DNA of 64,000 bases from a virus (Duplodnaviria; Caudoviricetes), in IMG/VR virus record IMGVR_UViG_2786546475_000043, positions 1,534 to 65,533 of that record, one strand, 5' to 3'. Below, one piece after another: positions 27,244-45,237 of the stretch. The stretch's first letter is position 1; each line of letters starts with the position of its first letter. The notes under the pieces were generated by a model. That model ran no database searches. It saw only the letters and a list, made by a program, of their open reading frames with translations, and had not been told where the DNA came from. The translations under genes and the position numbers were made by a program.

Positions 27244-27706
27244 GGTCCTTAACCAGGGCGTAATCGACAACAATGTTGGGGATCGATTCGGGGGCCGAGG
27301 GTTAGCGGCCGGGGTAGCTGGATGGCTAAGCATTGCCATTGTCGACATTGACCCAGAGACCGGAATTTGCCACACAGCTTTCGCTGTGGAGAAAGAACAT
27401 CTCATGTTCACCGGCCATCTACACGGTGCCTGTATAACTGCCCTGATCGATACGTCGCTACCCCTAACCGTTTACCCGTTCGTCCCAATTGGCTCGGTGG
27501 TATTTGTCGGTCATCTGGGTGTCGATTACCTGAGTAGCGTCACGGAGGGCATTTGCGACGCCTACACGACAATCGAGTCTTTAGGTTCAAGTACAGCCGT
27601 GCTTAGAACCAAGGTTGAGAACAAGGGTCGATTGGTAGCCCTTGGAAATGGAACCTGCCACATCAAGAACTTCGACAACAGAAGCAAACTAACAACGGAC
27701 TCCTGA
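27209..27706 (+). CDS. PaaI-like thioesterase (hot-dog fold)
   Basis: GHLHGACITALID, HLGVDYL, GRLVALGNGT; SD GGAGG before the ATG at 27209. Confidence 0.85.
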   Translation: MTDKSSLPLPLEVLNQGVIDNNVGDRFGGRGLAAGVAGWLSIAIVDIDPETGICHTAFAVEKEHLMFTGHLHGACITALIDTSLPLTVYPFVPIGSVVFVGHLGVDYLSSVTEGICDAYTTIESLGSSTAVLRTKVENKGRLVALGNGTCHIKNFDNRSKLTTDS

Positions 27707-28596
27707 TGGAAGTAAATGTCATAAGAAATCATCAGAATCCTCCCGAGATTCGTCAGTGCCGTCCTCGTCGGGATTGGATGGATGAAAGCTACAAAAAGCA
27801 CGCCTATAAGTGCCTACCCTTAACTGCGGCAAACACACACGGGTGGGAAGTGGTTCTTCAACAAGATGTAACTGTGATTTTAGATGACTGGGAAACCATC
27901 CCCAGAGTCCTTGAAGGTCAAACGATTACCCATAGCATTTTTCAGGAGCAGCCCGAAGAAAAGGCTCCCCCTCCCCCACCCGGCAAACGTAGGTGGATAG
28001 GCAATCCTCCCGAGGGTTGGGTTGAGCCGGTCCATGTTCCGGAATCTGTGTTACCTCTTGAGCCGGAAATCCTCCAGACTTACGAACGCGATATTCCCAT
28101 GCCTTCTATCGTAGGAACCATCTCGTTGGCTGTTGATTGGGTCATGAATCCCGGCGAGGGTTACAGCACGTTTATTTCTGGTCCACCCAACTACTTCATG
28201 GACGGCATAGTTCCCCTGACGGCGATGATCCCAGGGTGGTGGCCTGATCCGTTTGCCATGAATTGGAGGATCACCACGCTCAATACTCCGATCACCTTTC
28301 CGAAGGGGATGCCTTACATGTGGTTCACCTTCGTAAAGGACGATTTCCTGCCGGACATCAGGTTCAATGTCAGCGGTACCTGGAATGATCCTGAGTTAAT
28401 GGAAGAGCGAGCCAGCTATGGGGCGGAAAAGAGTCGCAAAGAGATAGAGCAACCGTGGGTTTGGATGGGCGGACTCCGAACCGGCCTCAATGAACACGGG
28501 GAGAGAGTCGGCCCGAAACATGAAGGTCACCCAATTTTGGATGTACCGACTTATGAGGCGGGTAGGGGTTCGGTTTGGGACAAGGTGGATCAATGA
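27706..28596 (+). CDS. DUF6065-like protein
   Basis: RRDWMD...HAYKCLPLTAANTHGWEV, GPPNYF, FAMNWR, FPKGMP. Confidence 0.75.
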   Translation: MEVNVIRNHQNPPEIRQCRPRRDWMDESYKKHAYKCLPLTAANTHGWEVVLQQDVTVILDDWETIPRVLEGQTITHSIFQEQPEEKAPPPPPGKRRWIGNPPEGWVEPVHVPESVLPLEPEILQTYERDIPMPSIVGTISLAVDWVMNPGEGYSTFISGPPNYFMDGIVPLTAMIPGWWPDPFAMNWRITTLNTPITFPKGMPYMWFTFVKDDFLPDIRFNVSGTWNDPELMEERASYGAEKSRKEIEQPWVWMGGLRTGLNEHGERVGPKHEGHPILDVPTYEAGRGSVWDKVDQ

Positions 28597-30434
28597 ACAA
28601 AGATGAACTAGACCCAAAGTCTTCTCAGGAGAAGACCGCCGCATGGGGTGACCAGCGAGGCCTTACCAAGAAAAAGAGGATGAAGGGAGACGGAAATGAC
28701 TCCCACAGTGGTACTGGAATGGCAGCCGGGATGTTTACTGATGCTATGGGACTTCGACTCCAAGGAATAACCCCACAGCAAATTCTTGACGATCAAGAGT
28801 GGTACAGGGGCTTATTGCTCAAACATAAGGCGATTGGTTTCAAGAGACTGAACCCGACAAGAGAAGAGCATCGTGATGTTTTGAGGGCCCTGTATAGCGG
28901 AGAGCACGAGAAGATACCAGGGATCGACCTCGGCCCACTACCCGAGGGCCAAGAGCAGGGTTGGGGAGAAGTCTTCGATGTCACTCATGACTGGATTGAA
29001 ACCAGCAATCAAGGTGTTAAAGAAGACTGGGGACACACGTTTATAGACAAAAACTGGCACATAGACGGTCTCGCCTTTAGAGATGACGTACCGGCACTCA
29101 CAAGCATGCTCATGACGCGCCACACAAAGCTTGTGGAGAACGACGACACTTGTGTCGCGAGCTTGGAATACTTATATGAGATCATGCCTGACGAGTTCAA
29201 AGAGAAATTGCAAGATGCTCGCCTAACCCACATCAACACGGGCCAGTCTCGCACTCACCCAGCTTTACGAACTCATCCAGTGACGGGAGTCACTTCTCTT
29301 TGTTTTGCGATAGAAACATTTTCTAACGATCCGAAGTTGTTCCTGGATAACGCTGTAGAACGGGTGGAACAAAAGATAGACCCGGAAGGTCAAGATAGAG
29401 AAGACCGTCTTCAGGTAACTGGCGCTGTCGATGCCGATGGCAACGTGATAGATATGGGTGAAATCAAGCAATGGGTCATGGATCAGCTGAAAGATCCAAG
29501 GTTGCGGTTTACCTGGAGATGGGATGAAGGTGATCTCTTCGTTTGGGACAACAGGTGTCTTGTTCACACATTCGACAGTGGATTCATAGTCGGTGAACGG
29601 ATATTCAATCGTGTCGAAATGGGATTTGAAGTTCCTTATTACGACCCAACCAAGAATCCAGAGCCGAAGCAATACGAGAAGCCCCAATCCCCCGTCAACA
29701 CGAATAAAACCAGTTCGGAAGAATTTGACAAATCAGTCGAAGCACCAATAGCTGAGGATTGGGCCACCGCCCCCGCCACCCAGGATCACATCCCATTGGT
29801 ACTTACGGAGGGGATTTACGCTCTCCCGGAATACAAGTACTTAGCGAATGGGGTAACACTTTTTGTCATTGTCAAGGACCAGTATTCCAGTGTTCCCGAC
29901 GAGATCATGAGCCTGCGTGAACGTTGCGAGGATCCAGATTTCCATGTCATAAAGGTTCCATACGATGAGAATCACATACTCATCAAGAAATATGCCAGAC
30001 ATTGGCATCCTGGTGAACCGTTGATAGGCCAAATATTTGTCTTCACCAGGAATGGTGACTATTCCACGTCGTTCACCTCAATATCTGATGAGCTTATGGA
30101 CAGCAATACTTTATGGACCGATATTACGTCGCTGCTGGAGCAGCGTAGGGATTTCCGACATGCCGGACACGCTTGGCATTATCCAGACTTTATGAGTTAT
30201 CCGAATCACATGCTGCGGCCATACCATTGGCGGAACTTGTTATTCGAAAGCTACACGGACTTTGACGAGAAAGAAGGCCCCCCCAAAGACTTTTTGGTTC
30301 AGTACGCCATCGACCACATCTTCGGATGTTTCAATCACTACAAGACAAACGAAGAGCGAAAAGAACTCGTTGAGGACGTAAGGGACTATCTGGACATCAT
30401 GCTGGAAATGAACGAACATGAGCTTGGACGCTGA
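28593..30434 (+). CDS. TauD/TfdA-family dioxygenase with an extra C-terminal domain
   Basis: WHIDG, HPALRTHPVTG, WDEGDLFVWDNRCLVH; ~250 extra C-terminal residues; ATGA overlap at 28593. Confidence 0.85.
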   Translation: MNKDELDPKSSQEKTAAWGDQRGLTKKKRMKGDGNDSHSGTGMAAGMFTDAMGLRLQGITPQQILDDQEWYRGLLLKHKAIGFKRLNPTREEHRDVLRALYSGEHEKIPGIDLGPLPEGQEQGWGEVFDVTHDWIETSNQGVKEDWGHTFIDKNWHIDGLAFRDDVPALTSMLMTRHTKLVENDDTCVASLEYLYEIMPDEFKEKLQDARLTHINTGQSRTHPALRTHPVTGVTSLCFAIETFSNDPKLFLDNAVERVEQKIDPEGQDREDRLQVTGAVDADGNVIDMGEIKQWVMDQLKDPRLRFTWRWDEGDLFVWDNRCLVHTFDSGFIVGERIFNRVEMGFEVPYYDPTKNPEPKQYEKPQSPVNTNKTSSEEFDKSVEAPIAEDWATAPATQDHIPLVLTEGIYALPEYKYLANGVTLFVIVKDQYSSVPDEIMSLRERCEDPDFHVIKVPYDENHILIKKYARHWHPGEPLIGQIFVFTRNGDYSTSFTSISDELMDSNTLWTDITSLLEQRRDFRHAGHAWHYPDFMSYPNHMLRPYHWRNLLFESYTDFDEKEGPPKDFLVQYAIDHIFGCFNHYKTNEERKELVEDVRDYLDIMLEMNEHELGR

Positions 30435-32454: not shown

Positions 32455-33199
32455 ATTTCCAAACGCTTTCACGGTAGATCCGGATGCGTTAGCTCAATGG
32501 ATGGAGCTTCGTCGAACCTGCGAGCCGGATGACTACACGGTTAACGACGACGGGAACTTCGTGAACAGGGGTGGATACGTCTTCACCCCTGAGCAATACC
32601 AGTCATCGCCGAGTCGGTTTCTGAATCTCGAACCGGAAGGCGAAGATACAACGTTCCTTGAATCGATCCTGGACGTTATGTACAAGTGCGTACTCGAGTA
32701 CATCGACATCTTTCCCACTGTTGCTCATTCGATTTGGTGGCGAACCGACGGACAGGTGGCCTCCTACAAGGATGGACAGGGCATGGGTCCCCATCATGAC
32801 CGGGCAATCGAATACATCCCGGGTGATATTCCCGCCAGTGAGGCTCCGATCCACAATGAGATAACGGGCTCGATCGTTCTTCAGAAAGCCGAAGAGGGCG
32901 GACAACTTTTGTTTCCCATCAACAAAACCACCGTCGATGGCGAGGCGGGCACGGCAATCCTCTACCCGTCCAATTACATTGGATCACACGCGGTAGCGCC
33001 GGTTACTAGGGGCGAACGACTGTCATACCTCGAGTTTTATGGACAGGGAACCCCGGGTGGCTATGAAGGAAACGCCCCAGCCCAGCAATCATGGTTTTCT
33101 GCTCTACTTGACCCAGAAACCGGACAGCGTCCTATGTGGGGTCAGAGTGGTCACGAACGCGGCGAGATAGTCGGTGATCCGCCTCCAGCTCAGTCATAA
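32417..33199 (+). CDS. 2OG-Fe(II) oxygenase (WW-GH subfamily)
   Basis: IWWRTDGQVASY, PHHD, YPSNYIGSHAVAPVTRGERLS. Confidence 0.9.
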   Translation: MTKCVVHQSGVVEFPNAFTVDPDALAQWMELRRTCEPDDYTVNDDGNFVNRGGYVFTPEQYQSSPSRFLNLEPEGEDTTFLESILDVMYKCVLEYIDIFPTVAHSIWWRTDGQVASYKDGQGMGPHHDRAIEYIPGDIPASEAPIHNEITGSIVLQKAEEGGQLLFPINKTTVDGEAGTAILYPSNYIGSHAVAPVTRGERLSYLEFYGQGTPGGYEGNAPAQQSWFSALLDPETGQRPMWGQSGHERGEIVGDPPPAQS

Positions 33200-33926
33200 C
33201 ATCTTGCTCCAGGGCGGGTAGCCACGTTCGCCCCTGCAGCCCTGATTTGCGCTCGGACTGAATCACAATCCCTCTATCAGGGGCCGAAGTTCCCTGCCCA
33301 AACGTCGAGATGTACGAGTACCGGGTACCCTCGATGACCGGCGTAATTTCATGAGCCCCCATGTAGTTACTTGGGAACAGGATGTGGTCACCCGGACCAA
33401 CTCGGACTTCAAGCTTCAGGTGTTCGAACTTGATATTTCCTCCACTGAAGCCAGCTCCCAACACCAATGTGGACGACACCGTGTTGAACAGGGCTGTCTG
33501 GTCCTTGGGGTGATCTCCAAAGCGGTAGTTGACATCGTTGTCACTGTGCATCCCTAGCAGGGCCCCTTTGCGATACACCGCGACGTGACCTCCAGCGTCC
33601 CACCAACAAGAGGGCATGGCGTCTGGATAGAGGGTGCAGTAGGCAACAAGGTTCTTGTAGATGGCCCTGTCACATTCAGCAAAAAAAACCGGATCTAAAG
33701 GCTGGTTGATCCGTATTGGCATAGTGGAGATGTGTTCTGCTGGAATGAGGTGGCCACTTTGATTGGTCCCATTCCCGTCTTCATCCAGGTCATACATCTC
33801 GACAAGGGCCTTGTCGGCCATCTCCCTAAGATCCCGTTCCAACAGGGTTGGCATACCATCGTCAAGATCGGTGATGGTGTCGTGAAACTTGACTACACCT
33901 CCACCCAGTTGATGGGCCCACACCAT
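33132..33926 (-). CDS. 2OG-Fe(II) oxygenase (WW-GH subfamily)
   Basis: CWWDAGGHVAVY, MHSD, FPSNYMGAHEITPVIEGTRYS; start placed at MVWAHQ behind AAGGAG. Confidence 0.88.
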   Translation of the reverse strand: MVWAHQLGGGVVKFHDTITDLDDGMPTLLERDLREMADKALVEMYDLDEDGNGTNQSGHLIPAEHISTMPIRINQPLDPVFFAECDRAIYKNLVAYCTLYPDAMPSCWWDAGGHVAVYRKGALLGMHSDNDVNYRFGDHPKDQTALFNTVSSTLVLGAGFSGGNIKFEHLKLEVRVGPGDHILFPSNYMGAHEITPVIEGTRYSYISTFGQGTSAPDRGIVIQSERKSGLQGRTWLPALEQDVMTELEADHRLSRRVRDHSDPT

Positions 33927-33927
33927 C

Positions 33928-34908
33928 TCATGTATCTCCTTCGGTTGGCGATCCCCCGCCCACCTGGAGGCCCTGAGAGTCCTTGAACACTGAGGTCGAG
34001 TATTTGGGTGTCCCCTCATGCCCAAATGCTGGGTATTGGCTAGTCACCTCTTCTGCGGTCCAGCCGGAATACTTTAGAAAGTCCCCCCGAACGGTTGGAC
34101 ACCACATGAAGGGGTCTATGAAGCCCTCTCGGGGTTCAGTAATTGCCAGGCCTTCCTCAGCGCTTGTCAGGGCCTCCATCGAGCCTTGCCCGAAGAACTG
34201 TAGATAAGACAGTCGCCTATTCCCTTCCGCTACTGGCGTTATCTCATGGGAACCCAAGTAGTTGGCTGGGAACAAGATGATGTCCCCCTCGCGAGCTTCA
34301 ACAGTTAGGTCGGCGTAGGGGAAGTACATCTCTCCACCCTCGCAATCGGCAATGTGCATTGTGGTACTCATTACGTTACGGGTTGAGATCTCGTGCTTCC
34401 CGATAACATTTTCACGAGTGTCGTAGGTGTAACCGATGTCTTGATCCTGGTGGCGTGACAGGAACGCTCTAGGTTCGTAAACCAAAACATGACCTCGGTT
34501 CTTCCACCATAGAGAAGTGATGATGGTGGGGTATTTCTGGATGTACTCCAATACCGCCAGATAGCAAAGACGGTCGACTTCAAACCAGTAATCATCAACA
34601 GTGAAGTCGGAGAGTTCTACGCTCCCATCCCGTCCATGAGGATGCACCCTGGTCGGTTGTTCAAGGATGTCTCTTTTATTGTGGTAGACAATTCCACTGT
34701 GTTTGTGGGTTGCTGCATCACCGTCGAAGTCATATTCCTTAGATAGTTGAAGATCCCGTAACGTCACTAGCTCGTCAATGATGGACTGGGGCGTTTTGAT
34801 TACGGCTCGCTTGATGGCGATACCGCACGCATAATGCTCCATGGAGCCCGTGAGCGGTGGAGGGGGCTGTCGAGTTCTAACGGTTGGTATGTCGTCTGTC
34901 AGGGACAT
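33928..34908 (-). CDS. 2OG-Fe(II) oxygenase (WW-GH subfamily)
   Basis: LWWKNRGHVLVY, RHQD, FPANYLGSHEITPV..RRLS. Confidence 0.88.
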   Translation of the reverse strand: MSLTDDIPTVRTRQPPPPLTGSMEHYACGIAIKRAVIKTPQSIIDELVTLRDLQLSKEYDFDGDAATHKHSGIVYHNKRDILEQPTRVHPHGRDGSVELSDFTVDDYWFEVDRLCYLAVLEYIQKYPTIITSLWWKNRGHVLVYEPRAFLSRHQDQDIGYTYDTRENVIGKHEISTRNVMSTTMHIADCEGGEMYFPYADLTVEAREGDIILFPANYLGSHEITPVAEGNRRLSYLQFFGQGSMEALTSAEEGLAITEPREGFIDPFMWCPTVRGDFLKYSGWTAEEVTSQYPAFGHEGTPKYSTSVFKDSQGLQVGGGSPTEGDT

Positions 34909-34910
34909 GA

Positions 34911-35963
34911 TTACACATCATAGGGCTGATAGATGCCTTCGGCGTCACCTTCCAGGGATCGTTGTTGTGACACGGGGTTTGCTACAACCATTGATTCGTA
35001 GGTCCCTGCCTTAAAGTCGGGTCGGCGATGGTACCCGCTCCAGCTTTCTTCCGACTTGGAGTGTCCGGATTTGAAGAACCGTTCGTAATCCTGAAAGATC
35101 CACGGAAGATACACAGGTGGTAGCCATTCATGGCTGTCTGTGGCTTCGGAAATGACGTACTTGTCATCCTTGCCCTGTCCAAATTGGGTCAGGTACGAAT
35201 AGCGACACCCTGATGTCACTTCCGACACTCCATGAGATCCCATGAAATTGGCCGGGAATAGAACGATGTCTCCAGTCTTGGTTTCAAGAGACAGCTTTGA
35301 GTAGGGGAAAATAAAGTTCCCGCCCTCGTAGTCCTCGTTGAGAGCTACGGTCCCATTGAGTACCTGATAGATAGCTACCGGTCGCTGTGTTTCGTATCGT
35401 TGGCCGTCTATGACCCTGAAGTTTGTGTCGTTGTCGTTATGTAGGCCCAACAGGGCACCTGGCTTGTAGTAAAGAACGTGTCCCCGCATCTTCCACCAGA
35501 TGGTATTGAGAATCATCGGATAGAGATCGATGTAGCGGATAAGGCACTTGTAGAGCGCTGTCTCACAGTTGTTGAAGAAATCAACAAGAGATCCGGGGGT
35601 CCGATCCATCACTGGCTCATTTTCCCCAAGACCGCCCAAGCGGAATGGTTGTTCCATCAACAGTCGGATGTCGTGACGGTTCCCCTGGTAATCTTCAGCC
35701 CACTTTTCCCCGTCCTCTTCCACCCACTTCAAGCCGCAGTTCGAGGGTTGGGCTTCCTCATTGACGTAGGGAAGAAGCTCATCGATGGGTACATCCAGAA
35801 CACGCTTGAAGTGCACGACACCGTTCTCGTGCTGCTCGAACTCGAGACTAGCAATTTCTGCACAGTCAGCGTCCGTTAGCTTGGGCGACGGATGGACTGG
35901 TTTTGGATCCTGACCGTTGGTGGGGTTATCGGTTGTGTACCTATCCGTCATCAAGACAGTCAT
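34911..35963 (-). CDS. 2OG-Fe(II) oxygenase (WW-GH subfamily)
   Basis: IWWKMRGHVLYY, LHND, FPANFMGSHGVSEVTSGCRYS. Confidence 0.88.
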   Translation of the reverse strand: MTVLMTDRYTTDNPTNGQDPKPVHPSPKLTDADCAEIASLEFEQHENGVVHFKRVLDVPIDELLPYVNEEAQPSNCGLKWVEEDGEKWAEDYQGNRHDIRLLMEQPFRLGGLGENEPVMDRTPGSLVDFFNNCETALYKCLIRYIDLYPMILNTIWWKMRGHVLYYKPGALLGLHNDNDTNFRVIDGQRYETQRPVAIYQVLNGTVALNEDYEGGNFIFPYSKLSLETKTGDIVLFPANFMGSHGVSEVTSGCRYSYLTQFGQGKDDKYVISEATDSHEWLPPVYLPWIFQDYERFFKSGHSKSEESWSGYHRRPDFKAGTYESMVVANPVSQQRSLEGDAEGIYQPYDV

Positions 35964-35971
35964 AATTGTTC

Positions 35972-36733
35972 CTACGAAAGGCGTTTGGCAATAATCATGC
36001 CTTGTTCCATGGGGACATGGTACACATCGAAGTTCGACTGGGCCGCAATGTAACGGTTAAAGCTTGTGTATGAATGCTTGTGAGGTCTCCCCACATTGTA
36101 AGAACTTTGAAACCCACTGGTTTCGGGGTAGTGGAGTATCCCCCCGACGTTGAGTAGACCCAGGATGGCGTCAACTACACGGTTGTTGATGGAATGCAGG
36201 GTTCGTGGTCCAACACGAACCATGTCGAACGTGCCCGCTCCTTCTCCATCGAGAAGATCCTGCATATCCATTGCTGCGTACCGAATATCTGAATAATTAT
36301 TCGTTACGTCAGATAGGGGCAGTCCGAATTCCTCCCAATCGTACAAGTTGCCGCTGTTTAGGATTGTATATTCCCTTATCGGCGTAGGGCCTTCCATCAC
36401 GTCAAGCATTGCGGCAATCGGAAGTGGGGAATCGGACAGGATCTTTGGATTGCTCCTGTCCATGAGCTTGGCAAGCATGACCGTAACCATGTAGCCCATC
36501 CACATGACGTTCTCCCAATTCTCGGGAGCGGTTTTGTACAGATCGTGTTTAACCATCTCGAACTCGCCACCGACGGCGATATCTCGCTGGTCTAAATTGA
36601 GAGCGGCGTAATCAGCCGTAACAGCAACTGACCAATCGTTCATCACTGCAGTGTTGGCAAATGTTCCATCCCACTGAGCGTTGGAACTATCGCGGGCTAC
36701 ACGAAGAGCTTTCGACCAATGACTCTCAGCCAT
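35972..36733 (-). CDS. Class I methyltransferase-fold-like protein lacking the Gly-rich motif I
   Basis: MQDLLDGEGAGTFDMVRV, LLNVGGIL, YHVPMEQGMIIAK; start overlaps the upstream TAA; paralog of 42560-43261. Confidence 0.55.
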   Translation of the reverse strand: MAESHWSKALRVARDSSNAQWDGTFANTAVMNDWSVAVTADYAALNLDQRDIAVGGEFEMVKHDLYKTAPENWENVMWMGYMVTVMLAKLMDRSNPKILSDSPLPIAAMLDVMEGPTPIREYTILNSGNLYDWEEFGLPLSDVTNNYSDIRYAAMDMQDLLDGEGAGTFDMVRVGPRTLHSINNRVVDAILGLLNVGGILHYPETSGFQSSYNVGRPHKHSYTSFNRYIAAQSNFDVYHVPMEQGMIIAKRLS

Positions 36734-37038
36734 TACGCACGTCCAATCGCTAGAGCGCGCCTGCGCCAAGCCCGTCGGATAACGGCAATCAAGAGTTGTT
36801 GTTTAACAAAAGTCCATTCATCCGCTGCCAATATATGAGCGGTACCTTCTACGGCTGGACCATTTGCATAGGTTTCACGGATCTTATTGACGATGTCGTC
36901 AATAGTTGTGGTGTCGATGTCTGCCCAGTCGAGTCCTGCGGTAAACATGACCCGCGCCACTTCACCTTCAGACCACGTCAGTTCATCATCGTTCGAGTAG
37001 AGCGATCCAACCGTGTCCTGCGTGGTACGGACAGTCAT
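36733..37038 (-). CDS. Hypothetical ~100-aa protein (triad member)
   Basis: Coupled on both sides; similar to 42261-42560. Confidence 0.75.
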   Translation of the reverse strand: MTVRTTQDTVGSLYSNDDELTWSEGEVARVMFTAGLDWADIDTTTIDDIVNKIRETYANGPAVEGTAHILAADEWTFVKQQLLIAVIRRAWRRRALAIGRA

Positions 37039-37250
37039 GATTCGTCTCCGGCGGCCCTCCGGAACCCAGGGCAGAAGGTCACAGAGTTATCAGATACCCA
37101 TTCCCAGGCGCTCAATGTTGGATTCCAACGGCGAATGTCGTTATCGCGTGATTCGTTTGGCAAGGTGTCGTAGTATGCACCCGCCGTTTCTCCAATTTCA
37201 CCGCCATGAATGGTTCGACCTGCCGCTATGGCGTCTGTCTGGACGGTCAT
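37035..37250 (-). CDS. Small hypothetical peptide (triad member)
   Basis: ATGA-type overlaps; RWNPTLSAWE..SVTFC. Confidence 0.7.
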   Translation of the reverse strand: MTVQTDAIAAGRTIHGGEIGETAGAYYDTLPNESRDNDIRRWNPTLSAWEWVSDNSVTFCPGFRRAAGDES

Positions 37251-37456
37251 GCGAGTGCCTCCAAAGCCGTGGCCTGCCTAAGTATCGCCTGATGAGCGCT
37301 ATAGGAACTGTCGCTCTCAGCTACAGGAATAGCGTAGGAACTAGACACATCTGCCGTGTCTACGCCAAGAGTTAAACAGAGAACCTGGATTGAATACTCC
37401 AAGAATTCCTTGGCATCTGCTTTAGCTGCGGCGGCTTGGGCTTCTGTAAGGGCCAT
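37247..37456 (-). CDS. Small helical protein, possible fibre-chaperone family
   Basis: LTEAQ..LEYSI..LGVD; leaderless promoter. Confidence 0.7.
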   Translation of the reverse strand: MALTEAQAAAAKADAKEFLEYSIQVLCLTLGVDTADVSSSYAIPVAESDSSYSAHQAILRQATALEALA

Positions 37457-37476: not shown

Positions 37477-37725
37477 CTACGATAGTGAAGCTTTATGGGC
37501 CTTAAGGGTCGCTAGAGCATCGAGCCTTTCCTTGAGCGTATGCTCGATGGCATAAACCTCAGCGTCCTCTTTGCCTGCTGGGATAGCGTAGTTGTCACCA
37601 TCGAACGTCGTAGGGTCAAAGCCGAGGAGCAGAATCTTTTCATAGACACTCGGCTCGATCTGATCTGCGGCAGCATCGCAGGCCGCAAGTTTTTCCGCAG
37701 TTGTGAGTCCAGCTGTAAACTCCAT
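37477..37725 (-). CDS. Small helical protein, same family as 37247 and 46859
   Basis: LTTAEK..IEPSVY..LGFDP..FD. Confidence 0.7.
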   Translation of the reverse strand: MEFTAGLTTAEKLAACDAAADQIEPSVYEKILLLGFDPTTFDGDNYAIPAGKEDAEVYAIEHTLKERLDALATLKAHKASLS

Positions 37726-37803: not shown

Positions 37804-38001
37804 ATGGACAACGATGGAGTTTCACCCGAGGGGGTCATCGAAGACCTCGCTGAACAAAACAAGCGCCTAACTATAGATTGTGCCATATTGCGTACAGCTG
37901 TCAAGCAACTACGGGCCGAACTCGCATTACTGCAGGAACCGCCGGGAATACCACCACAGATAGAGGGCCAACAGGTCCTTGATGGTGACGACACGGACTA
38001 G
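37804..38001 (+). CDS. Small coiled-coil protein
   Basis: Heptad LAEQNKRLTIDCAILRTAVKQL; extended -10 box 6 nt upstream. Confidence 0.65.
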   Translation: MDNDGVSPEGVIEDLAEQNKRLTIDCAILRTAVKQLRAELALLQEPPGIPPQIEGQQVLDGDDTD

Positions 38002-38006
38002 CTGCA

Positions 38007-38447
38007 ATGGACAGAATTTGTTATTGCCCTTCCGAGGAGGAGATCAAGCAAGCTGAGGAGCTTGCTGAACCCTGGGGCATTCCTATCCAAATTGGGGATA
38101 GCGAAAAAACCAGCGTTCTGGAGTTCGACAGATCTCTGACACAAATCCTCCAAGTCCCAACTAGGCAGTACCTGCATCTCAGTTCTGCCAATCTAAGAGT
38201 CAACAATGCCCTCCTGGTGCTCTACAAGGACGAGTTCGAGGGGACAGAGGGCTGTTGGGCCGAGATCCACCTGATGACAAACGTTCCCCACACGGGAAAC
38301 GTTTTCGAGAAGATACTGCCCACACCCACTGCAAACGGATACACGAAGAATTTTCGTATCCGTCCCAGGTACATCGGCGATTACGAACTTCGAATCGTTG
38401 ACACAGACGGCGTTATCGCTACTGACAACTTTACAGTCAGAAGATAG
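38007..38447 (+). CDS. Hypothetical protein
   Basis: 146-aa ORF inside the operon; beta-rich C-terminus. Confidence 0.65.
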   Translation: MDRICYCPSEEEIKQAEELAEPWGIPIQIGDSEKTSVLEFDRSLTQILQVPTRQYLHLSSANLRVNNALLVLYKDEFEGTEGCWAEIHLMTNVPHTGNVFEKILPTPTANGYTKNFRIRPRYIGDYELRIVDTDGVIATDNFTVRR

Positions 38448-38452
38448 CCCTT

Positions 38453-39127
38453 ATGTCGTCTACTCACGACATGAGTGACCTGGTCAACACCGACCCTCGG
38501 GCTGCCTTGAACTTGTTTCGAAAGGCCAGGGAATCCCTCGAAGAGGATCCGTTTCCGTATGAGGAACCAATCCCATTTGTCCATCTTTACCATGGCGGGT
38601 TCGATGGGCAGGCCCTCATCGACGCGTTCGAGGCCACAGGCGAGTGGCGTCAAGCAATGACCGGTGGTGGCGACAAGGGACGGGTTGGCGAACACAGAGA
38701 TTCCAGAACAATTAGTTTGAATATACCTTTGAACCAGAAAAGTGACACCTTAAGTGACGTTCAGAAGGCAGGATTGCCAGTCCTGTATGCCGCAGAACGC
38801 GCTGTCTGGGATTACCGAGAGACCTATGACCTTCATCTGGATGAACAACAGGGCTGGATAATAAACAAATATGGACACGGGGGAAACTACTTACCGCATA
38901 CAGATCACGGCCCCTCATCCCCAAGGCTACTTTCAGCTGTTGTTTATCTAAACACCATTAGTGACGAAGGTAAAACGTTCTTCTTGGAATGGGACTGGCG
39001 AGCTTCCTGTGTCGAGGGGGACATTCTGCTATTTCCATCGAGTTACCCCTGGAAACATGAAGCTGAACCGGTGGGACTTAACGATCCTACGCAAGTGAAG
39101 TACTCAATGGTTACTTGGTTCGTATGA
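38453..39127 (+). CDS. 2OG-Fe(II) oxygenase, prolyl 4-hydroxylase-like
   Basis: YLPHTD, SAVVYLN, FPSSYPWKHEAEPV..KYS. Confidence 0.9.
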   Translation: MSSTHDMSDLVNTDPRAALNLFRKARESLEEDPFPYEEPIPFVHLYHGGFDGQALIDAFEATGEWRQAMTGGGDKGRVGEHRDSRTISLNIPLNQKSDTLSDVQKAGLPVLYAAERAVWDYRETYDLHLDEQQGWIINKYGHGGNYLPHTDHGPSSPRLLSAVVYLNTISDEGKTFFLEWDWRASCVEGDILLFPSSYPWKHEAEPVGLNDPTQVKYSMVTWFV

Positions 39128-39759
39128 TTGAACACATTGATAACCCAATTCCTGGTGTTTCAATCTATTCCGTCGAAAGAGATGAGGATCTAATCGAACC
39201 TGCTGGTTTGGTTCGGGACTACCTAACTAGCCGCAACACGAAGGATGTTCTTCTGTTCCCCATGGGGGAATTCGTAGAGATTTACGAGGAAGAAGCCAAT
39301 CGCACATGGCCTCATCTCCCCTTCTTTCCCAACCTGGTTGGGGATGCCAACTATGCCGACACCTTCTGGTCGCCCGTGGTGGGGATCGAAAAAGCGCAAC
39401 AGTCACGTTTGGTACATATCGCCATGAGGTTCAAGGTTCTCAATGCGGTTATAGAAGAGTGCATCGCTGACTACAGAACATTTTACGACATAAAGTGGGA
39501 AAGATCTACGCGATGTGAAGTTATCAAGATACGCGGTAAGCAATTTTCTGCCTCCCTCACAGTTCATGAAACAAAGTCAAGTACAACAACCTTTATAGCT
39601 CTAACTGATCTCATTGTACGACTCACAAGATTTGATACGGAGTTCCCTATCGCTGAGGGGCAGGTATTTGTTGCCCCTATCCAGTTTCCCTACGATCTTC
39701 AAGTCAAGCCACCGGAATCGAACATTGCCTATTTCCTCACCAAGTCCCTGTATCCATGA
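39124..39759 (+). CDS. Probable inactive 2OG oxygenase paralog
   Basis: DYRTFYD and EGQVFVAPIQFPY align with the upstream oxygenase; HxD and the distal His are absent. Confidence 0.5.
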   Translation: MIEHIDNPIPGVSIYSVERDEDLIEPAGLVRDYLTSRNTKDVLLFPMGEFVEIYEEEANRTWPHLPFFPNLVGDANYADTFWSPVVGIEKAQQSRLVHIAMRFKVLNAVIEECIADYRTFYDIKWERSTRCEVIKIRGKQFSASLTVHETKSSTTTFIALTDLIVRLTRFDTEFPIAEGQVFVAPIQFPYDLQVKPPESNIAYFLTKSLYP

Positions 39760-41294
39760 AGAAGAACTTAGTTATTGTCGGTTCCGGCCAATCTGGCCTC
39801 ATTGCGGCTCTCCTGGTTAAGTCGATCCTTCCCGAGTATGCGAACATAACCGTAATCTCATCCTCAGACATTCCCCCAATAGCTGTCGGCGAGGGTAGTA
39901 CGGAACATTGGAATGAATTCGAAAAGATTGTGGGATTGGTACGGAGAGAAACGATTAGGCAATGTGACGCAACTTTCAAATATGGCATACGGTTTATGGA
40001 TTGGACTCACCATACGCCGGACTACATGCATAGCATCGGCGGTGATGGGCTGTACGCGGACCATTTCAACGTCCTTTACAACTATGTCAACAGCTCAGAT
40101 CACTTATTAACCTCAGTCCTTCTGCCGGTGGGGCTGACTGAAGGCCTGGTCAAACATGAAGAGGATGACCACATGCTTCATCAGGTTAACCAACTTCATT
40201 TCGATACCCATAAGCTAAATAACTACCTAAGGGATCGATGCGTCAAACTCGAAATTGAGTTTGTAGATGCAAAAGTTCAAGGTCTAGAACGAGATTCTCA
40301 TACCGGAGACATTGCGAAACTGGTTACTTCGGCTGGCAACTATCCAGCCGACTTTGTAATAGATGCCAGTGGGTTCAGCAGAACTGTGCTCAGTTTGTTG
40401 GGAGATGTCCACTGCACGACGTTTGATGATGTCCTTCCCTGTGATACTGCTCTCGTTTTTCGAACCCCTTCGGAGTCCAATAGCATTCTGAAGCCCTACA
40501 CCTCGGCCAGGGCTCTTTCGTCTGGATGGCTTTGGGAAATTCCAACCTACCGTTGTCGTGGAAACGGGTATGTCTTTTCATCAGATTACATAACCGAATC
40601 TCAAGCTCTCGAGGAAGTAGAAACTACTTTAGGGATTGAGGTTCCCGATGCCAACCTAATTGAATTTCGTCCACATTACGTTACAAATTCTTGGCAATCC
40701 AACTGCGTGGCGGTAGGGCTGGCGTCCAATTTTCTGGAACCCCTGGAGGCGACATCCATCGCAGCCACCATTAACCAGGTAAGGCTACTTTGTTCGAACT
40801 TGCCCGCCTATAAACCCAACTCGAGCGTCTTGCAAAACAGCTACCTGAAAACCTTCAGATCTATGGTTGATAATATGCTGGCCATGGTGGCGATGCACTA
40901 TGTCAGCGATCGTGCCGATTCTCCAATGTGGCTTGAGCAGCAAAGCCGTCCTAAACCAGATCTCCTCCAACACCTCATCGGAATCATGAAATATCGAGGA
41001 CCTGAGGATCACGATATTCCTCATACCGGTTTTGAGTTGTTCCGCGCAGGACATTTTTGGCACGTCGGACAAGGACAGGGTTTGATTGACCGGGAGAATA
41101 GTAGGGTTGCACTCATGGCTCGCCTACAAGAAGATAATGCAGCAGACCGGGTCAGGACGATCGTCACCCAGCAGGGAGCGAAGGGTTCTCTCGACCATCG
41201 TAGGGTTCTTGAGCTGGCAAGGGAAGACTTGCCGGTCACTCACTATCCCGACTGGAAATTTGGCGAATACCAAATAGAGAGGCTAGATGTCTGA
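39756..41294 (+). CDS. Flavin-dependent halogenase (tryptophan halogenase PrnA/RebH family)
   Basis: IVGSGQSG, VGEGST, ATFKYGI (catalytic Lys), WLWEIP, GLASNFLEPLEATSI. Confidence 0.92.
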   Translation: MKKNLVIVGSGQSGLIAALLVKSILPEYANITVISSSDIPPIAVGEGSTEHWNEFEKIVGLVRRETIRQCDATFKYGIRFMDWTHHTPDYMHSIGGDGLYADHFNVLYNYVNSSDHLLTSVLLPVGLTEGLVKHEEDDHMLHQVNQLHFDTHKLNNYLRDRCVKLEIEFVDAKVQGLERDSHTGDIAKLVTSAGNYPADFVIDASGFSRTVLSLLGDVHCTTFDDVLPCDTALVFRTPSESNSILKPYTSARALSSGWLWEIPTYRCRGNGYVFSSDYITESQALEEVETTLGIEVPDANLIEFRPHYVTNSWQSNCVAVGLASNFLEPLEATSIAATINQVRLLCSNLPAYKPNSSVLQNSYLKTFRSMVDNMLAMVAMHYVSDRADSPMWLEQQSRPKPDLLQHLIGIMKYRGPEDHDIPHTGFELFRAGHFWHVGQGQGLIDRENSRVALMARLQEDNAADRVRTIVTQQGAKGSLDHRRVLELAREDLPVTHYPDWKFGEYQIERLDV

Positions 41295-42075
41295 AATGAT
41301 GGAACACCATTTCCCGGTCGGTAGGTCAAATCACGTTATGGTGTTTGACAACTACCTTGATCCAGACGTGTGTGATGAGGCCGTTGAATTGTTCAAGGTC
41401 CACTATTCGCGTCTGTTCACCCCAGGACCAACCTTTAGTGGAGTGACCCCTGGGGTCAAGCTGAGCCAGGATGCTGCAATCGACCCCAACTCTCTAGCGG
41501 ATTTGGGCCTGGAGGGATCAGGCTTAACGGTGCTTCGAAACCAAGCTGAAACGGCCATACATATTGCAGTCCAAAGGTACATTCAGGAATACCGCACACT
41601 TTGGTCCTGGCCGGGGATAGGCGAATCTGGTTTTCGGGTTCAGCACTATCATCGAGGACATGGTTTTTACCGACAACATTGCGACCATTTACCGTGGGAA
41701 GGTCACCCTTCGCACTCCGCTGTTGCGCGAGTGCTCGCTACCATCACCTACCTCAACACCATCGAAGTTGGGGGAGCTACCCGCCTGGTCGAGCAGGAAG
41801 CCGATGTCCAGCCGGTAACGGGGAGAATATTGATCTTCCCAGCCACCTGGACCCACCCCCACATGGGGCTACTTCCGGTCTCCTCGGACAAATGGATTCT
41901 AAGTAGCTTTATCCATTGTGCAATAGAGGAGTACCACGAGGACTTCCAGTCGGAAACGTGGATTACACCTCTCAAGGACGGCGTGGAGGTTGGTGAGGCA
42001 ACTGAGTTGCTCAAAGAGGAGTTGCTCACAGAAGAGGCTACCGAGGACACAGAAGAGGCTACCGAGGACGAATGA
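41287..42075 (+). CDS. 2OG-Fe(II) oxygenase, prolyl 4-hydroxylase-like
   Basis: YRQHCD, TYLNTIEVGGAT, FPATWTHPH..KW. Confidence 0.9.
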   Translation: MSEMMEHHFPVGRSNHVMVFDNYLDPDVCDEAVELFKVHYSRLFTPGPTFSGVTPGVKLSQDAAIDPNSLADLGLEGSGLTVLRNQAETAIHIAVQRYIQEYRTLWSWPGIGESGFRVQHYHRGHGFYRQHCDHLPWEGHPSHSAVARVLATITYLNTIEVGGATRLVEQEADVQPVTGRILIFPATWTHPHMGLLPVSSDKWILSSFIHCAIEEYHEDFQSETWITPLKDGVEVGEATELLKEELLTEEATEDTEEATEDE

Positions 42076-42107: not shown

Positions 42108-42257
42108 ATGCCCACGACTCCCGATAAATGGAATGCTGAGAGCGAACGCTACGAAGGCCACGACTACGAAGAGTCGGGCAACCTTGTGTTCTGCATGATG
42201 TGGGACACGCCTCCAATGACCATAGATGACCCAATTCTTAATCCACTGGAGGATTAA
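42108..42257 (+). CDS. 49-aa peptide (triad member); missing from the ORF track
   Basis: GGAGG SD; MPTTPDKWNAESERYEGHDYEESGNLVFCMMWDTPPMTIDDPILNPLED*; -10 box TACAAT at 42076. Confidence 0.7.
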   Translation: MPTTPDKWNAESERYEGHDYEESGNLVFCMMWDTPPMTIDDPILNPLED

Positions 42258-42260
42258 GTT

Positions 42261-42560
42261 GTGGCTTACGACATCGACGCCGACTACCAATACCTCTGCA
42301 CCCATCTAGCCCTACTGATTGCGTCCGTTGGGGGAGACGACGAGACCGTCGAAACCATGACCCATACAGACTTGCGGCTCTTAATCACGACCCACTACAA
42401 CGATCTCCCCAGCCCGGGCGCTGCCCCATACGGTGGGCGTATGAGTCCTGACGACTGGACCCCTTCCGAAATTGCCTCAAGCAGGATCAGATTCCAAAAA
42501 TACGACAATGCCCGGAAGTTCATCTTCTATCGGGATCTCTTGAAGGCGAGGATGGCCTAA
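42261..42560 (+). CDS. Hypothetical ~100-aa protein (triad member)
   Basis: GTG start with GGAGG; similar to 36733-37038. Confidence 0.75.
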   Translation: MAYDIDADYQYLCTHLALLIASVGGDDETVETMTHTDLRLLITTHYNDLPSPGAAPYGGRMSPDDWTPSEIASSRIRFQKYDNARKFIFYRDLLKARMA

Positions 42561-43261
42561 TGGCATTGCCAACCGCAGTAGACATGCTCAAGGTTGCGGA
42601 AGCCCACGGGAACGCGGCCCACTACGCCAGTATCGAAGTGGCTACAGAGAAAGCCTTCGCCGAAGCCGTTATCGCCGAGGAACTCGGACTCGGAGCGGAT
42701 CGAAGTACTGAGAGTATCGGCATCCACGATGATATGAATCACTACGCGCACGCCGCTATGTGGTCCGAAGCTTTTGGAACTGTGATGCTGCATTCGCGCA
42801 CCATCCAAGAAATGCTGATTCGAATGGCGAATCCATCAGAACGCCTGGTGATTTCGAATAATCCGTATTTCCTACTGAAGCTCGGTATTGGCAATGTGAC
42901 CATTGCTAACAGTATTCACCTTGACTACCTGGAACGACACCACAATATTTCCGGCTTGGAGTACAGCGTTATCTCCATGCAGGACATCGAAGCTGGTAGT
43001 TTCACTACAACGTATGACATGGCTATTGTTGGTATGCCCCTGGTTAGACACGACTTCGGGTTGATAGACACGATCTACGGTCAGCTACCTAATGGTGGGT
43101 CAGTTATCCTTACCAGCAGCAATGACCACGGGAAGCTGTTTCACTTCAACAACGCCCATGACTATTCTGCGGTATATGAACATCTTAAAACTTTGACAGG
43201 GGCTCACTTGTACCATATACCTGGAGGCCTCGGGATCTCACTCCTCACCAAGACCGTTTGA
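42560..43261 (+). CDS. Class I methyltransferase-fold-like protein lacking motif I
   Basis: MQDIEAGSFTTTYDMAIV, QLPNGGSV, YHIPGGLGISLL. Confidence 0.55.
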   Translation: MALPTAVDMLKVAEAHGNAAHYASIEVATEKAFAEAVIAEELGLGADRSTESIGIHDDMNHYAHAAMWSEAFGTVMLHSRTIQEMLIRMANPSERLVISNNPYFLLKLGIGNVTIANSIHLDYLERHHNISGLEYSVISMQDIEAGSFTTTYDMAIVGMPLVRHDFGLIDTIYGQLPNGGSVILTSSNDHGKLFHFNNAHDYSAVYEHLKTLTGAHLYHIPGGLGISLLTKTV

Positions 43262-43278: not shown

Positions 43279-44121
43279 ATGGAATTCAGGATTTCGGGTA
43301 AAGACCTATTACATGACGATGCTCGCATTATCTCGGATATTGAAGTCGAACCTGGACACATACTCCTAGCTCCTCACGACAATTCTTTGTTCCACCCAAC
43401 CATTACCCCGCTTGACAATCTGAAAACCTGGCCCCCGTGGCGCAGAGAAGTGTTCGCTGGATTGAAGGCCTGTCAGGGAAACTCTGATTACATATCGCTG
43501 GGGGGCACCTGGAGACTGCATGGCGACGTGAGGTTTCGTCCTTCAGCAGACATGACCCAGTGGGAATCACGGATAGACCTTGATCCTCCCCCGGGTGACC
43601 AGCATCCCGATCTCTTCAAGACTGACATTTTTCCTTACGGAGCTTCCGGCCCCAGCTGTCCCTTCAATAAAGACAGAGCTCTGCCTGAATCTAACCAGTG
43701 TAAGGTTGTTAATCCTTGGATAATTAAGACTGCTCCTGGTTGGTCCACCATCCTCATTCCAAACCTTATGGAGCCGTCAAGGGACTGGAGTCTTATTCCC
43801 GGGGTAGTCAATACCGACTACTACCACCACATGCATTGGGTTTTCAACATCTACACCGACGAAGAATTCGTCCTTCGAGCTGGAACCCGCGTAGGACAAT
43901 TCATCACTTTCCCGCGCAACCATCAACACGTCGAATTTGCTTCGCCAAAAGTTGCCTCCATGCTTGAAACTCTTGGCTTTGATTCTCCAATTGGCCACCC
44001 TATAGACAAAAAGGGGGCCTATCGCAGGGAACACCGCAAGGCTGATCGCGTGAAACCGACGGTAGAAGCGCCCAAAGAGTCCATGCTGAATAGGATTCGG
44101 GAATGGCTGATCGGTACCTGA
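43279..44121 (+). CDS. Hypothetical protein, DUF6065 / dUTPase-like fold suspected
   Basis: KVVNPWIIKTAPGWSTIL, IPGVVNTDYY, LRAGTRVGQFI. Confidence 0.5.
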   Translation: MEFRISGKDLLHDDARIISDIEVEPGHILLAPHDNSLFHPTITPLDNLKTWPPWRREVFAGLKACQGNSDYISLGGTWRLHGDVRFRPSADMTQWESRIDLDPPPGDQHPDLFKTDIFPYGASGPSCPFNKDRALPESNQCKVVNPWIIKTAPGWSTILIPNLMEPSRDWSLIPGVVNTDYYHHMHWVFNIYTDEEFVLRAGTRVGQFITFPRNHQHVEFASPKVASMLETLGFDSPIGHPIDKKGAYRREHRKADRVKPTVEAPKESMLNRIREWLIGT

Positions 44122-44203: not shown

Positions 44204-44545
44204 ATGGCTCTAACTCAAACCAGGTTGGCTGGGCCCGCCGTTATCTCCAATTCAGGAACATACGGTACTTCACAGTACGTTGTCCCTGCAGCGACTTCTG
44301 CGATCGTCAAACAGATCGTGCTCTCGAACATCACTGCGTCTGCCCAGACGGTCACCATCACCCTGCTTCCTAATGCTGGAAGTCTCGCAGACACCATGAT
44401 CCTGTTCAAGGATCTGGCGTTGACGGAAAAAGAAACTACCTTTCTTAACATGTCCCTAGTTATGAATACCGGAGATACGTTATACGCACTGTGCGGAGCC
44501 GCCAGTTCGTGCAACATCACTGCGTCCGGAATCCAGGTAACGTAA
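44204..44545 (+). CDS. Virion structural protein
   Basis: YVVPAATSAIVKQIVLSN..LVMNTGDTL, typical of small phage structural proteins. Confidence 0.6.
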   Translation: MALTQTRLAGPAVISNSGTYGTSQYVVPAATSAIVKQIVLSNITASAQTVTITLLPNAGSLADTMILFKDLALTEKETTFLNMSLVMNTGDTLYALCGAASSCNITASGIQVT

Positions 44546-45237
44546 TGGCCTGGGGTAGAACCCGGGTCAATTCTCCCGGTCTCCTCGCCAGTTTCCTCGA
44601 CTCACCGGATGACATTTACGGTTCGGGAGCAGATGATTCTGTCACCATCTCCGGCAACACAACGCTGTCCAGTGACATGTTCTATTACGACCTTACGGTT
44701 AATGCCAATATCACCCTGAACACGGGTGGCTATCGGGTATTCGTAAAGAATGTCCTAACGATGGGGTCATCTGCTGTAATTGGACTTCCTGGCGGATCTG
44801 TTGCGACGGGAACCCTCAAGGGTGGCGGTGCCGCGTCAGCAAATACCACAAACAGTCTGGGGGGCAATGGCGCAAGCGCTACCGCAACTCAGATTACTGC
44901 AGCAGCTGGTGGGGCAGCATATTACAGGCACCCCTCACAGGCCGTCAGGGGTTACAACGTCACCGCATCAGCTACAACTCCGACCTATCTTGAAGGTGGT
45001 GCTGGTGGTACCGGCGTAGGTGGAGGAGTAGTTATCGTCTGTGCCCGCTACATCTCTACCAGCGCAGCGTGCACCGTTTCCGCAACCGGTGGGGCCGCTG
45101 CTGGAGGCGGGGTCGTTATCTTTGTTTCGTCCAATGATGAAACCATATTCAATACCCAAACCCACTTGACACTAGACGTTGCTAAGGGTGCGGGCGGTGG
45201 CACCGACGGGACAGCCATTTATCTCGAGGTGGACTGA
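44545..45237 (+). CDS. Gly-rich fibre/adhesin-like structural protein
   Basis: DMFYYDLTVN..TGGYRVFV, GGGVVIVCA; TAATG coupling. Confidence 0.65.
   Translation: MAWGRTRVNSPGLLASFLDSPDDIYGSGADDSVTISGNTTLSSDMFYYDLTVNANITLNTGGYRVFVKNVLTMGSSAVIGLPGGSVATGTLKGGGAASANTTNSLGGNGASATATQITAAAGGAAYYRHPSQAVRGYNVTASATTPTYLEGGAGGTGVGGGVVIVCARYISTSAACTVSATGGAAAGGGVVIFVSSNDETIFNTQTHLTLDVAKGAGGGTDGTAIYLEVD

Follow-up and report, generated by a model that had tools for sequence, protein, structure and literature searches.

We analysed a 64-kb stretch of DNA (the window) from a 65.5-kb IMG/VR virus record (IMGVR_UViG_2786546475_000043; estimated completeness 44%), which encodes a tail sheath, baseplate wedge and fibre-like proteins. 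The window contains two copies of a three-gene cassette, on opposite strands, in which a small acidic protein (A) is followed by a helical protein of ~100 aa (B) and a protein of ~240 aa (C) with the fold of cation-dependent O-methyltransferases. We found that these genes form a conserved, linked module in phage relatives, and that C represents an unannotated, apparently phage-only family that has lost the motifs of the enzymes whose fold it shares. In copy 1, two further small helical proteins (H1 and H2) precede A. The genes are the following (ORF, open reading frame; COMT, catechol O-methyltransferase; CCoAOMT, caffeoyl-CoA O-methyltransferase; AF2, AlphaFold2):

37477..37725, minus strand: H1, helical protein of 82 aa containing an LGxDP motif; its gene opens the minus-strand unit
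37247..37456, minus strand: H2, helical protein of 69 aa containing an LGxD motif; in translational coupling with A1
37035..37250, minus strand: A1, small acidic protein of 71 aa whose core is RDNDIRRWNPTLSAWEWVSDNSVTFCPGF; ORF with ATGA overlaps with both neighbours
36733..37038, minus strand: B1, 101-aa three-helix protein; 27 metagenomic homologues
35972..36733, minus strand: C1, 253-aa degenerate COMT/CCoAOMT-fold protein; weak Pfam Methyltransf_3 match (E=0.14)
42108..42257, plus strand: A2, 49-aa acidic small protein (KWN...VFCMMWD...DDPILNP); ORF with GGAGG 5 nt upstream
42261..42560, plus strand: B2, 99-aa helical protein with a GTG start; nine homologues
42560..43261, plus strand: C2, 233-aa degenerate COMT/CCoAOMT-fold protein; fold match by AF2, Foldseek and VIA

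An earlier note on this DNA had described the same small / ~100-aa / ~240-aa gene order occurring twice in opposite orientations, with all three genes tightly coupled, and both observations hold. In copy 1 the H2/A1 and A1/B1 junctions are ATGA overlaps and the B1/C1 junction is a TAATG, while in copy 2 a gap of 3 nt separates A2 from B2 and B2 overlaps C2 by 1 nt. A promoter-like site lies ahead of H1 on the minus strand (37904-37877). The reading frame of C1 is open as far as a TTG at 36769 (35972-36769); the ATG at 36733 agrees with the relatives and is the likely start, giving 253 aa. Compared with their orthologues, the cassette proteins gave ratios of nonsynonymous to synonymous substitutions (dN/dS) of 0.22-0.35 for A (0.22-0.34 for A1), 0.15-0.22 for B, 0.06-0.20 for C and 0.09-0.16 for H2. 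A, B and C are under purifying selection and are therefore all real genes.

The homology of the two copies was evident for C and B. C1 and C2 align by BLASTP (E=3e-10, 24% identity over ~240 residues) through the MQD, FDM, GG and YH.P..G blocks to which the earlier note had pointed. B1 and B2 are not significantly similar by BLASTP (E=0.3). Their narrow profiles matched at P=0.004, in the register proposed in the earlier note, and when the B proteins of four more lineages were added as bridges, hhalign aligned the two over 90 columns with a Prob of 95.7% and E=9.9e-9. In a quick tree of the C family, C1 and C2 fall into two deep clades, on opposite sides of a split with 99% support in the approximate likelihood ratio test (SH-aLRT), which rules out a recent duplication. 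Judging from this tree, the copies are therefore old paralogues: the cassette had been called duplicated, a word that is misleading for copies that have diverged so deeply.

Conservation of the cassette in relatives

When 1.84 billion representatives were searched exhaustively with a profile, 112 C-family proteins emerged at E<=0.001, corresponding to at least 112 clusters at 50% identity. Nearly all representatives are 220-268 aa long, with all 112 of full length in that range and none longer or fused; A, B and C therefore remain separate genes. Every cluster member sampled was an unnamed metagenomic protein encoded on a contig no longer than 219 kb; some came from Tara samples. Scans of cellular genomes with C1 and P0170, by a method that reaches close relatives only, gave no relative. 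Neither tblastn with C1, C2 and the 280-aa protein encoded after C2 nor megablast with the region found a match in 50,697 GenBank phage records, and the halogenase neighbourhoods of P-SSM2 and HTVC008M held no comparable cassette. Single-protein scans for related loci with P0035 and P0026 returned nothing, and A, B, C, H1 and H2 had no match above threshold in Pfam, PHROGs, NCBIfam or PADLOC.

To compare gene order, we fetched contexts of seven lineage types, which cover part of the 112 C representatives (L and G numbers denote loci and records):

L005, L006: copy-1-type cassette
L014, L004/L003: copy-2-type cassette
L016/L018, L021/L022, L026, L028/L029: cassettes of other lineages

A, B and C were found in the same order, on one strand and coupled, at both sites in the window and in L004, L005, L006, L014, L016/18, L021, L026 and L028/29, that is, in every lineage fetched. 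Both cassettes also occur in a related record of 114 kb (G002), arranged relative to each other as in the window. Homology between the copies and linkage of the genes in relatives, the two points on which the earlier note had staked its proposal of a module, were thus both observed. The orthologues of C1 in L005 and L006 are 72-78% identical to it; A2 has an orthologue with 56% identity in L014 and a positional equivalent in L004.

In five of the seven lineage types the order is H1, H2, A, B, C, with the H1/H2 tandem directly upstream of A in L005, L006, L016, L021, L026 and L028, so that the triad is really a five-gene unit; the copy-2 type has no H1/H2 ahead of A. The A proteins range from 49 to 105 aa among the lineages examined. 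An Asp and a Cys are invariant among the A1 orthologues of L005, L006, L021, L026 and L028/29, and a Trp-Asn-Pro core is conserved in four lineages.

Structure predictions for C and its helical partners

The AF2 model of C2 (predicted local distance difference test score, pLDDT, 72) has cation-dependent O-methyltransferases as its top Foldseek and VIA matches over the whole length (Foldseek E ~1e-7; VIA Z 14.6 for TrmR, 14.2 for COMT and 13.7 for a CCoAOMT-like protein, residues 24-233). A profile of 91 C members, searched against the sequences of the PDB, found the CCoAOMT 8gxo at E=6.5e-5. These matches substantiate the methyltransferase fold that had been ascribed to the large protein. Like the members of Methyltransf_3 (COMT, CCoAOMT, TrmR and SafC), C shows the whole-length fold with N-terminal helices (VIA Z 13-14.6) and the series of FD...GG...C-terminal hairpin blocks.

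Unlike these enzymes, C has no glycine-rich loop for S-adenosylmethionine (SAM), no metal triad and no catalytic Lys, and an Asn takes the place of the beta2 acid. SAM motif I ([ED]xGxG or [ED]xGxxxG) was found in the beta1 loop of none of the 91 members, any GxG in four, and the columns are variable. The Asp/Asp/Asn metal triad and the catalytic Lys (DADK...DN), located by HMMER alignment of C to 8gxo and 3cbg, map to the unconserved columns 158, 160, 161, 186 and 187. The family instead has a polar set of its own (D47-R/K-R, N117, E125, D142, D153, Y194 and H219), in which D47, N117, E125, D153, Y194 and H219 are nearly invariant and D142 occurs in 66 of 91 members. The Asn at position 117 (88/91) directly follows the predicted strand 112-116 and, from the topology of the model, would correspond to the SAM-ribose-binding site. 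C1 scores 11.8 bits against the Pfam Methyltransf_3 cut-off of 22 and C2 does not match; neither reaches the Pfam or NCBIfam methyltransferase thresholds. Further differences from Methyltransf_3 are the restriction of C to phage-sized contigs and its constant coupling to B and A.

Because the methyltransferase motifs have been lost while another polar set has been kept, we read C as a descendant of a cation-dependent O-methyltransferase that is neofunctionalised or non-catalytic. The earlier note had offered a modifying enzyme as one role for this protein, which is unlikely in the sense of a methyltransferase, given the family-wide absence of SAM motif I, metal triad and catalytic Lys. Alternatively, C could be a real, divergent methyltransferase or another SAM- or nucleoside-dependent enzyme that modifies A, for instance on the invariant Cys or on an aromatic residue that the oxygenases have hydroxylated, with B as its activating subunit. 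Such an enzyme would fit the COMT/TrmR/CCoAOMT fold and the sequence kinship to CCoAOMT, the three of 91 members that still match Pfam Methyltransf_3 (E<=0.01), and the placement of N117 (end of beta2) and D142 (after beta3) at nucleoside-contact positions; E125, D153, Y194 and H219 also resemble a functional site. The missing glycine-rich loop, the unconserved metal-ligand and Lys positions and the sub-threshold scores of both C1 and C2 speak against it, however, and we consider an active enzyme of this kind distinctly improbable.

The AF2 model of B1 (pLDDT 81) consists of three helices (16-34, 46-56 and 71-100) without strands, and B has a long basic C-terminal helix; a fold search gave no PDB match at E<=0.001. 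H1 and H2 form one family in a joint alignment and weakly resemble B, with which they have a helix-LGxD segment in common (P=0.0015). An acyl-carrier-protein-like role for H1, H2 and B was ruled out by eye, as no conserved Ser follows the Asp of LGxD.

The surrounding island and candidate roles of the cassette

Both cassettes lie within a tailoring island, delimited by Pfam matches at ~24.8-44.1 kb, between the tail, baseplate and fibre genes and a group of Gly-rich GNP-repeat proteins. Besides 2-oxoglutarate (2OG)-Fe(II) oxygenases (2OG-FeII_Oxy_3), the proteins of the island with Pfam matches are a glutathione peroxidase (GPx)-like protein, a thioesterase of the 4HBT type, one protein each of the DUF6065 and TauD families, an NADP-oxidoreductase-like protein and a Trp-type halogenase. 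In addition to the one TauD, ten ORFs match 2OG-FeII_Oxy_3, all between 25.9 and 42.1 kb; nine of them reach the gathering score of 27 bits, and one scores 23.9. The genes closest to our argument are listed here (P4H, prolyl 4-hydroxylase):

39756..41294, plus strand: Trp-type (flavin-dependent) halogenase, second gene upstream of A2; Pfam Trp_halogenase E=1e-88
41287..42075, plus strand: P4H-like 2OG-Fe(II) oxygenase directly upstream of A2; Pfam 2OG-FeII_Oxy_3 E=1e-10
33132..35963, minus strand: three P4H-like 2OG-Fe(II) oxygenases, next downstream of C1 and on its strand; Pfam 2OG-FeII_Oxy_3
27706..28596, plus strand: canonical DUF6065 protein, 296 aa; Pfam DUF6065 E=9e-34
28575-30434: TauD-family protein, 619 aa, just after the DUF6065 gene; Pfam TauD E=1e-19
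43279..44121, plus strand: 280-aa dUTPase-fold-like / DUF6065-like protein after C2; weak Pfam dUTPase match (E=0.005)

P4H-like oxygenases flank every cassette examined. The three-oxygenase arrangement after C recurs in L005 and L006, and similar oxygenases flank C in L016, L021, L026 and L028. DUF6065 genes also recur: one immediately precedes H1 in L016, L021 and L026, and L028 has one within a few kb, while the parts of L005 and L006 that were read showed none. In L028 a DUF6065/TauD pair adjoins the cassette, paired as at 27706-30434 in the window. The copy-2 type has a divergent, 273-291-aa DUF6065-like form beside or near C, represented in the window by the 280-aa protein, whose L004 orthologue reaches DUF6065 at E=0.064 and whose L014 orthologue adjoins C2. 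A literature search found no mention of DUF6065. The halogenase is confined to records with a copy-2-type cassette, and its absence from G005, G006 (97% complete) and G007 rules it out as an obligatory partner. The tail sheath of the window (1461-2951) is nearest to those of Gordonia/Arthrobacter myoviruses (~38% identity), and the halogenase is ~32% identical to PrnA-like genes of cyanophages and pelagiphages; from these differing affinities, the island looks mobile between myovirus backbones.

Several other ORFs and proteins accompany the cassettes. A 65-aa coiled-coil-like ORF and a 146-aa ORF without a family match start a divergent plus-strand unit (37804-38447), found in the same place in L005, L006 and L014. 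A 214-aa ORF without a Pfam match (39115-39759) lies between an oxygenase and the halogenase; its positional counterparts are 187 aa long in L006 and L014 and partial in L005. In three records the copy-2-type cassette adjoins a Gly-rich protein that has GNP/GTAGNPG runs and long inserts rich in His and Pro (of the HPHPSG type in L004), the three proteins being orthologous (window 44491-46844; L004 2891-4699; L014 3715-5861).

The presence of the oxygenases, halogenase, thioesterase, TauD and DUF6065 proteins tips the balance slightly towards a tailoring pathway whose enzymes would be the neighbouring oxygenases and not C. Such an island could make a small molecule or an amino-acid-derived metabolite, with A, B, C, H1 and H2 either as regulators or scaffolds outside the chemistry or as proteins with a part in host takeover. 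The thioesterase, TauD, halogenase and oxidoreductase-like genes would suit small-molecule chemistry, which is also among the predictions of Iyer et al. 2010 (PMC2938197). However, no nonribosomal peptide synthetase, polyketide synthase or ATP-grasp ligase was seen among the ORFs read around any cassette, the A-B-C genes are linked to P4H-like, peptidyl-type oxygenases at all loci, and the halogenase is dispensable (absent in G005, G006 and G007). A metabolite as the product therefore seems to us quite unlikely. We also set aside a DNA-modification pathway, which the combination of a dUTPase fold, a methyltransferase fold and oxygenases might have suggested, as the oxygenases are of the P4H type and C is without SAM motifs.

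The reading that we favour, which we hold possible without thinking it probable, is that the triad is a substrate-presentation module for the oxygenase/halogenase island, similar to those of peptides that are made ribosomally and modified after translation (RiPPs). A would be the ribosomal substrate, and C with its coupled three-helix partner B would act as a non-methylating binding and presentation scaffold, the recognition unit for A. The Trp/Asn/Pro/Asp/Cys core of A would then be hydroxylated by the neighbouring peptidyl-hydroxylase-like oxygenases and, in the copy-2 type, A might also be halogenated by the adjacent halogenase, with the two ancient paralogous copies serving the two different substrates A1 and A2. 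The A-B-C order is conserved and coupled, and A is a real, constrained gene that lies upstream of B-C, with P4H-like oxygenases flanking, in all lineages examined; a short gene next to tailoring enzymes is what is looked for in RiPP pathways. By sequence, C is no canonical methyltransferase and none of its 112 representatives shows a fusion to A or B, and the flanking oxygenases look like the peptidyl hydroxylases expected here, being P4H-like, with the one adjacent to A2 (41287..42075) closest to peptidyl prolyl-4-hydroxylases among solved structures (E ~5e-4). The pathway-type enzymes of the island (4HBT thioesterase, TauD, NADP-oxidoreductase-like and GPx-like proteins, halogenase) also count in favour of a presentation module, as does the prediction by Iyer et al. 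2010 that cyanophage neighbourhoods of this kind act on peptides or metabolites. The more specific proposal, that A proteins are the natural ribosomal substrates of phage dioxygenase/halogenase islands, including those with VirX1-type halogenases, and that B-C is a new peptide-recognition unit made of a dead COMT and a three-helix protein, is an unlikely one in our estimate.

Several observations weigh against a presentation module. At 49-105 aa, A would be a long precursor, and what is conserved in it lies in the middle of the protein and not in an N-terminal leader. BLASTP yields no alignment between A1 and A2 and a profile comparison gave P=0.075, so that their homology, for which position and the short motif speak, is statistically unproven. 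The earlier note had pointed to a common WN...FC motif in the two peptides, and this part stands: the motif is present and the best profile alignment falls in its register. In the six-frame translation, a loose, post hoc version of the motif was found at three places, two of them the A genes, where 0.35 would be expected per shuffle. The A protein of L016/L018 (57 aa, 4539-4712) lacks Cys and ends in DPWS; Cys is therefore not universal to the module. That of L004 lacks Trp, although a halogenase is coupled to the L004 cassette. No RiPP-typical protease, transporter or cyclase was seen. The RiPP recognition element (RRE) that the ~100-aa protein might have been under the earlier proposal of an adaptor is not borne out either: B, the one island protein covered by RRE screening, is a three-helix protein without a beta-sheet and therefore no PqqD-type RRE. 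In C, N117 and D142 sit at nucleoside-contact positions and leave room for ligand binding. Finally, the module lies among virion genes, beside collagen-like Gly/Pro/His-rich proteins that are equally good oxygenase substrates, and B and T4 gene 57A (L031:2408-2650) have a local helix-VG(I/L)xxD-helix pattern in common.

The last two points lead to the main alternative, a role in the maturation of virion fibres, in which the oxygenases and halogenase would modify the adjacent collagen-like proteins, H1, H2 and B would be gp57A-like chaperones, and A and C assembly or targeting factors. Proline in collagen-like sequences is the classical target of P4H-type enzymes, and the Gly-rich GNP/His/Pro proteins are plausible alternative substrates. 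The location of the island between tail, baseplate and fibre genes and the GNP-repeat proteins, the orthologous Gly/His-rich proteins beside the copy-2-type cassette in L004 and L014, and a tape-measure-like gene beside the L028 cassette are all consistent with this role. So are the profile comparisons with five gp57A sequences (T4 and four relatives), in which hhalign matched B at P=7e-4, in an alignment of 37 columns at the helix-GxxD-helix motif that B and H have in common, and H1/H2 at P=0.015. The signal for B is nevertheless weak and local (Prob 26%), and kinship of B and H to gp57A is a lead from weak sequence similarity, not a result. Moreover, PHROGs placed neither B nor H1 nor H2 in a chaperone family, the thioesterase, TauD, NADP-oxidoreductase-like and halogenase proteins have no assembly functions, the position of the cassette relative to structural genes differs in L016, L021 and L026, and the constant coupling of a small Cys/Trp protein upstream of B is left unexplained. 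On balance, we judge a fibre-maturation role somewhat unlikely. The RiPP-like module and the three-part fibre accessory complex named in the earlier note thus both stay in play, the context leaning slightly to tailoring and the weak gp57A signal to fibres.

Irrespective of its role, the new element here is an unannotated, phage-restricted family of degenerate COMT-fold proteins with at least 112 clusters, which merits a name and a profile and which, in the lineages examined, is linked within these islands to a helical partner of ~100 aa and to a conserved small protein of the Cys/Trp/Pro kind. Under the presentation reading, A1 and A2 are candidate substrates that would be cheap to test, and B-C is a candidate recognition complex. 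If A is modified, the islands would constitute a new system of peptide tailoring carried by phages and could supply peptide hydroxylases and halogenases whose substrates are defined; if the A proteins are the substrates, the pathway would be RiPP-like, with recognition by something other than an RRE. If instead B, H1 and H2 prove to be chaperones like gp57A, fibre assembly and post-translational tailoring would be connected through the module.

Comparison with known systems

The cassette resembles RiPP triads (mftABC, pqqA/D/E) in that a short ORF, a ~100-aa partner and a larger protein with an enzyme fold are coupled beside tailoring enzymes. In contrast to these triads, B is a three-helix protein and not a PqqD-like winged helix, C is without the catalytic motifs of its ancestors, A is larger with a central conserved core, and no protease or exporter was seen. 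T4 gp57A is, like B, a small all-helical protein encoded in the structural region of a myovirus, with the local helix-(V/L)G(I/L)xxD-helix pattern. B differs from it by the additional long basic C-terminal helix, and gp57A is linked neither to oxygenases nor to a methyltransferase-fold protein.

Marine and freshwater myoviruses were recognised in 2007-2010 as carriers of arrays of 2OG oxygenases and Trp-type halogenases, and the viral halogenase VirX1 is a valued biocatalyst. A review of halogenases (PMC8407142) gives no natural product for VirX1, whose active site is large and open. Sporadic cyanophage genes including oxygenases and prnA have been described (Sullivan et al. 2010). The closest parallel is the neighbourhood in phage Syn9, with ten dioxygenases, two halogenases and a dUTPase-fold protein, for which peptide or metabolite tailoring was predicted (Iyer, Abhiman, de Souza, Aravind 2010, PMC2938197); the available part of that paper names no substrate and describes no cassette of a small protein, a three-helix protein and a dead methyltransferase. 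Both the window and the Syn9-type neighbourhood belong to a myovirus and encode numerous 2OG oxygenases that stand in tandem and are distantly related, along with a Trp-type halogenase and a protein of the dUTPase fold (DUF6065), whereas the window adds the A-B-C cassette and has a tail sheath nearest to those of Gordonia/Arthrobacter phages and not to T4-like cyanophages.

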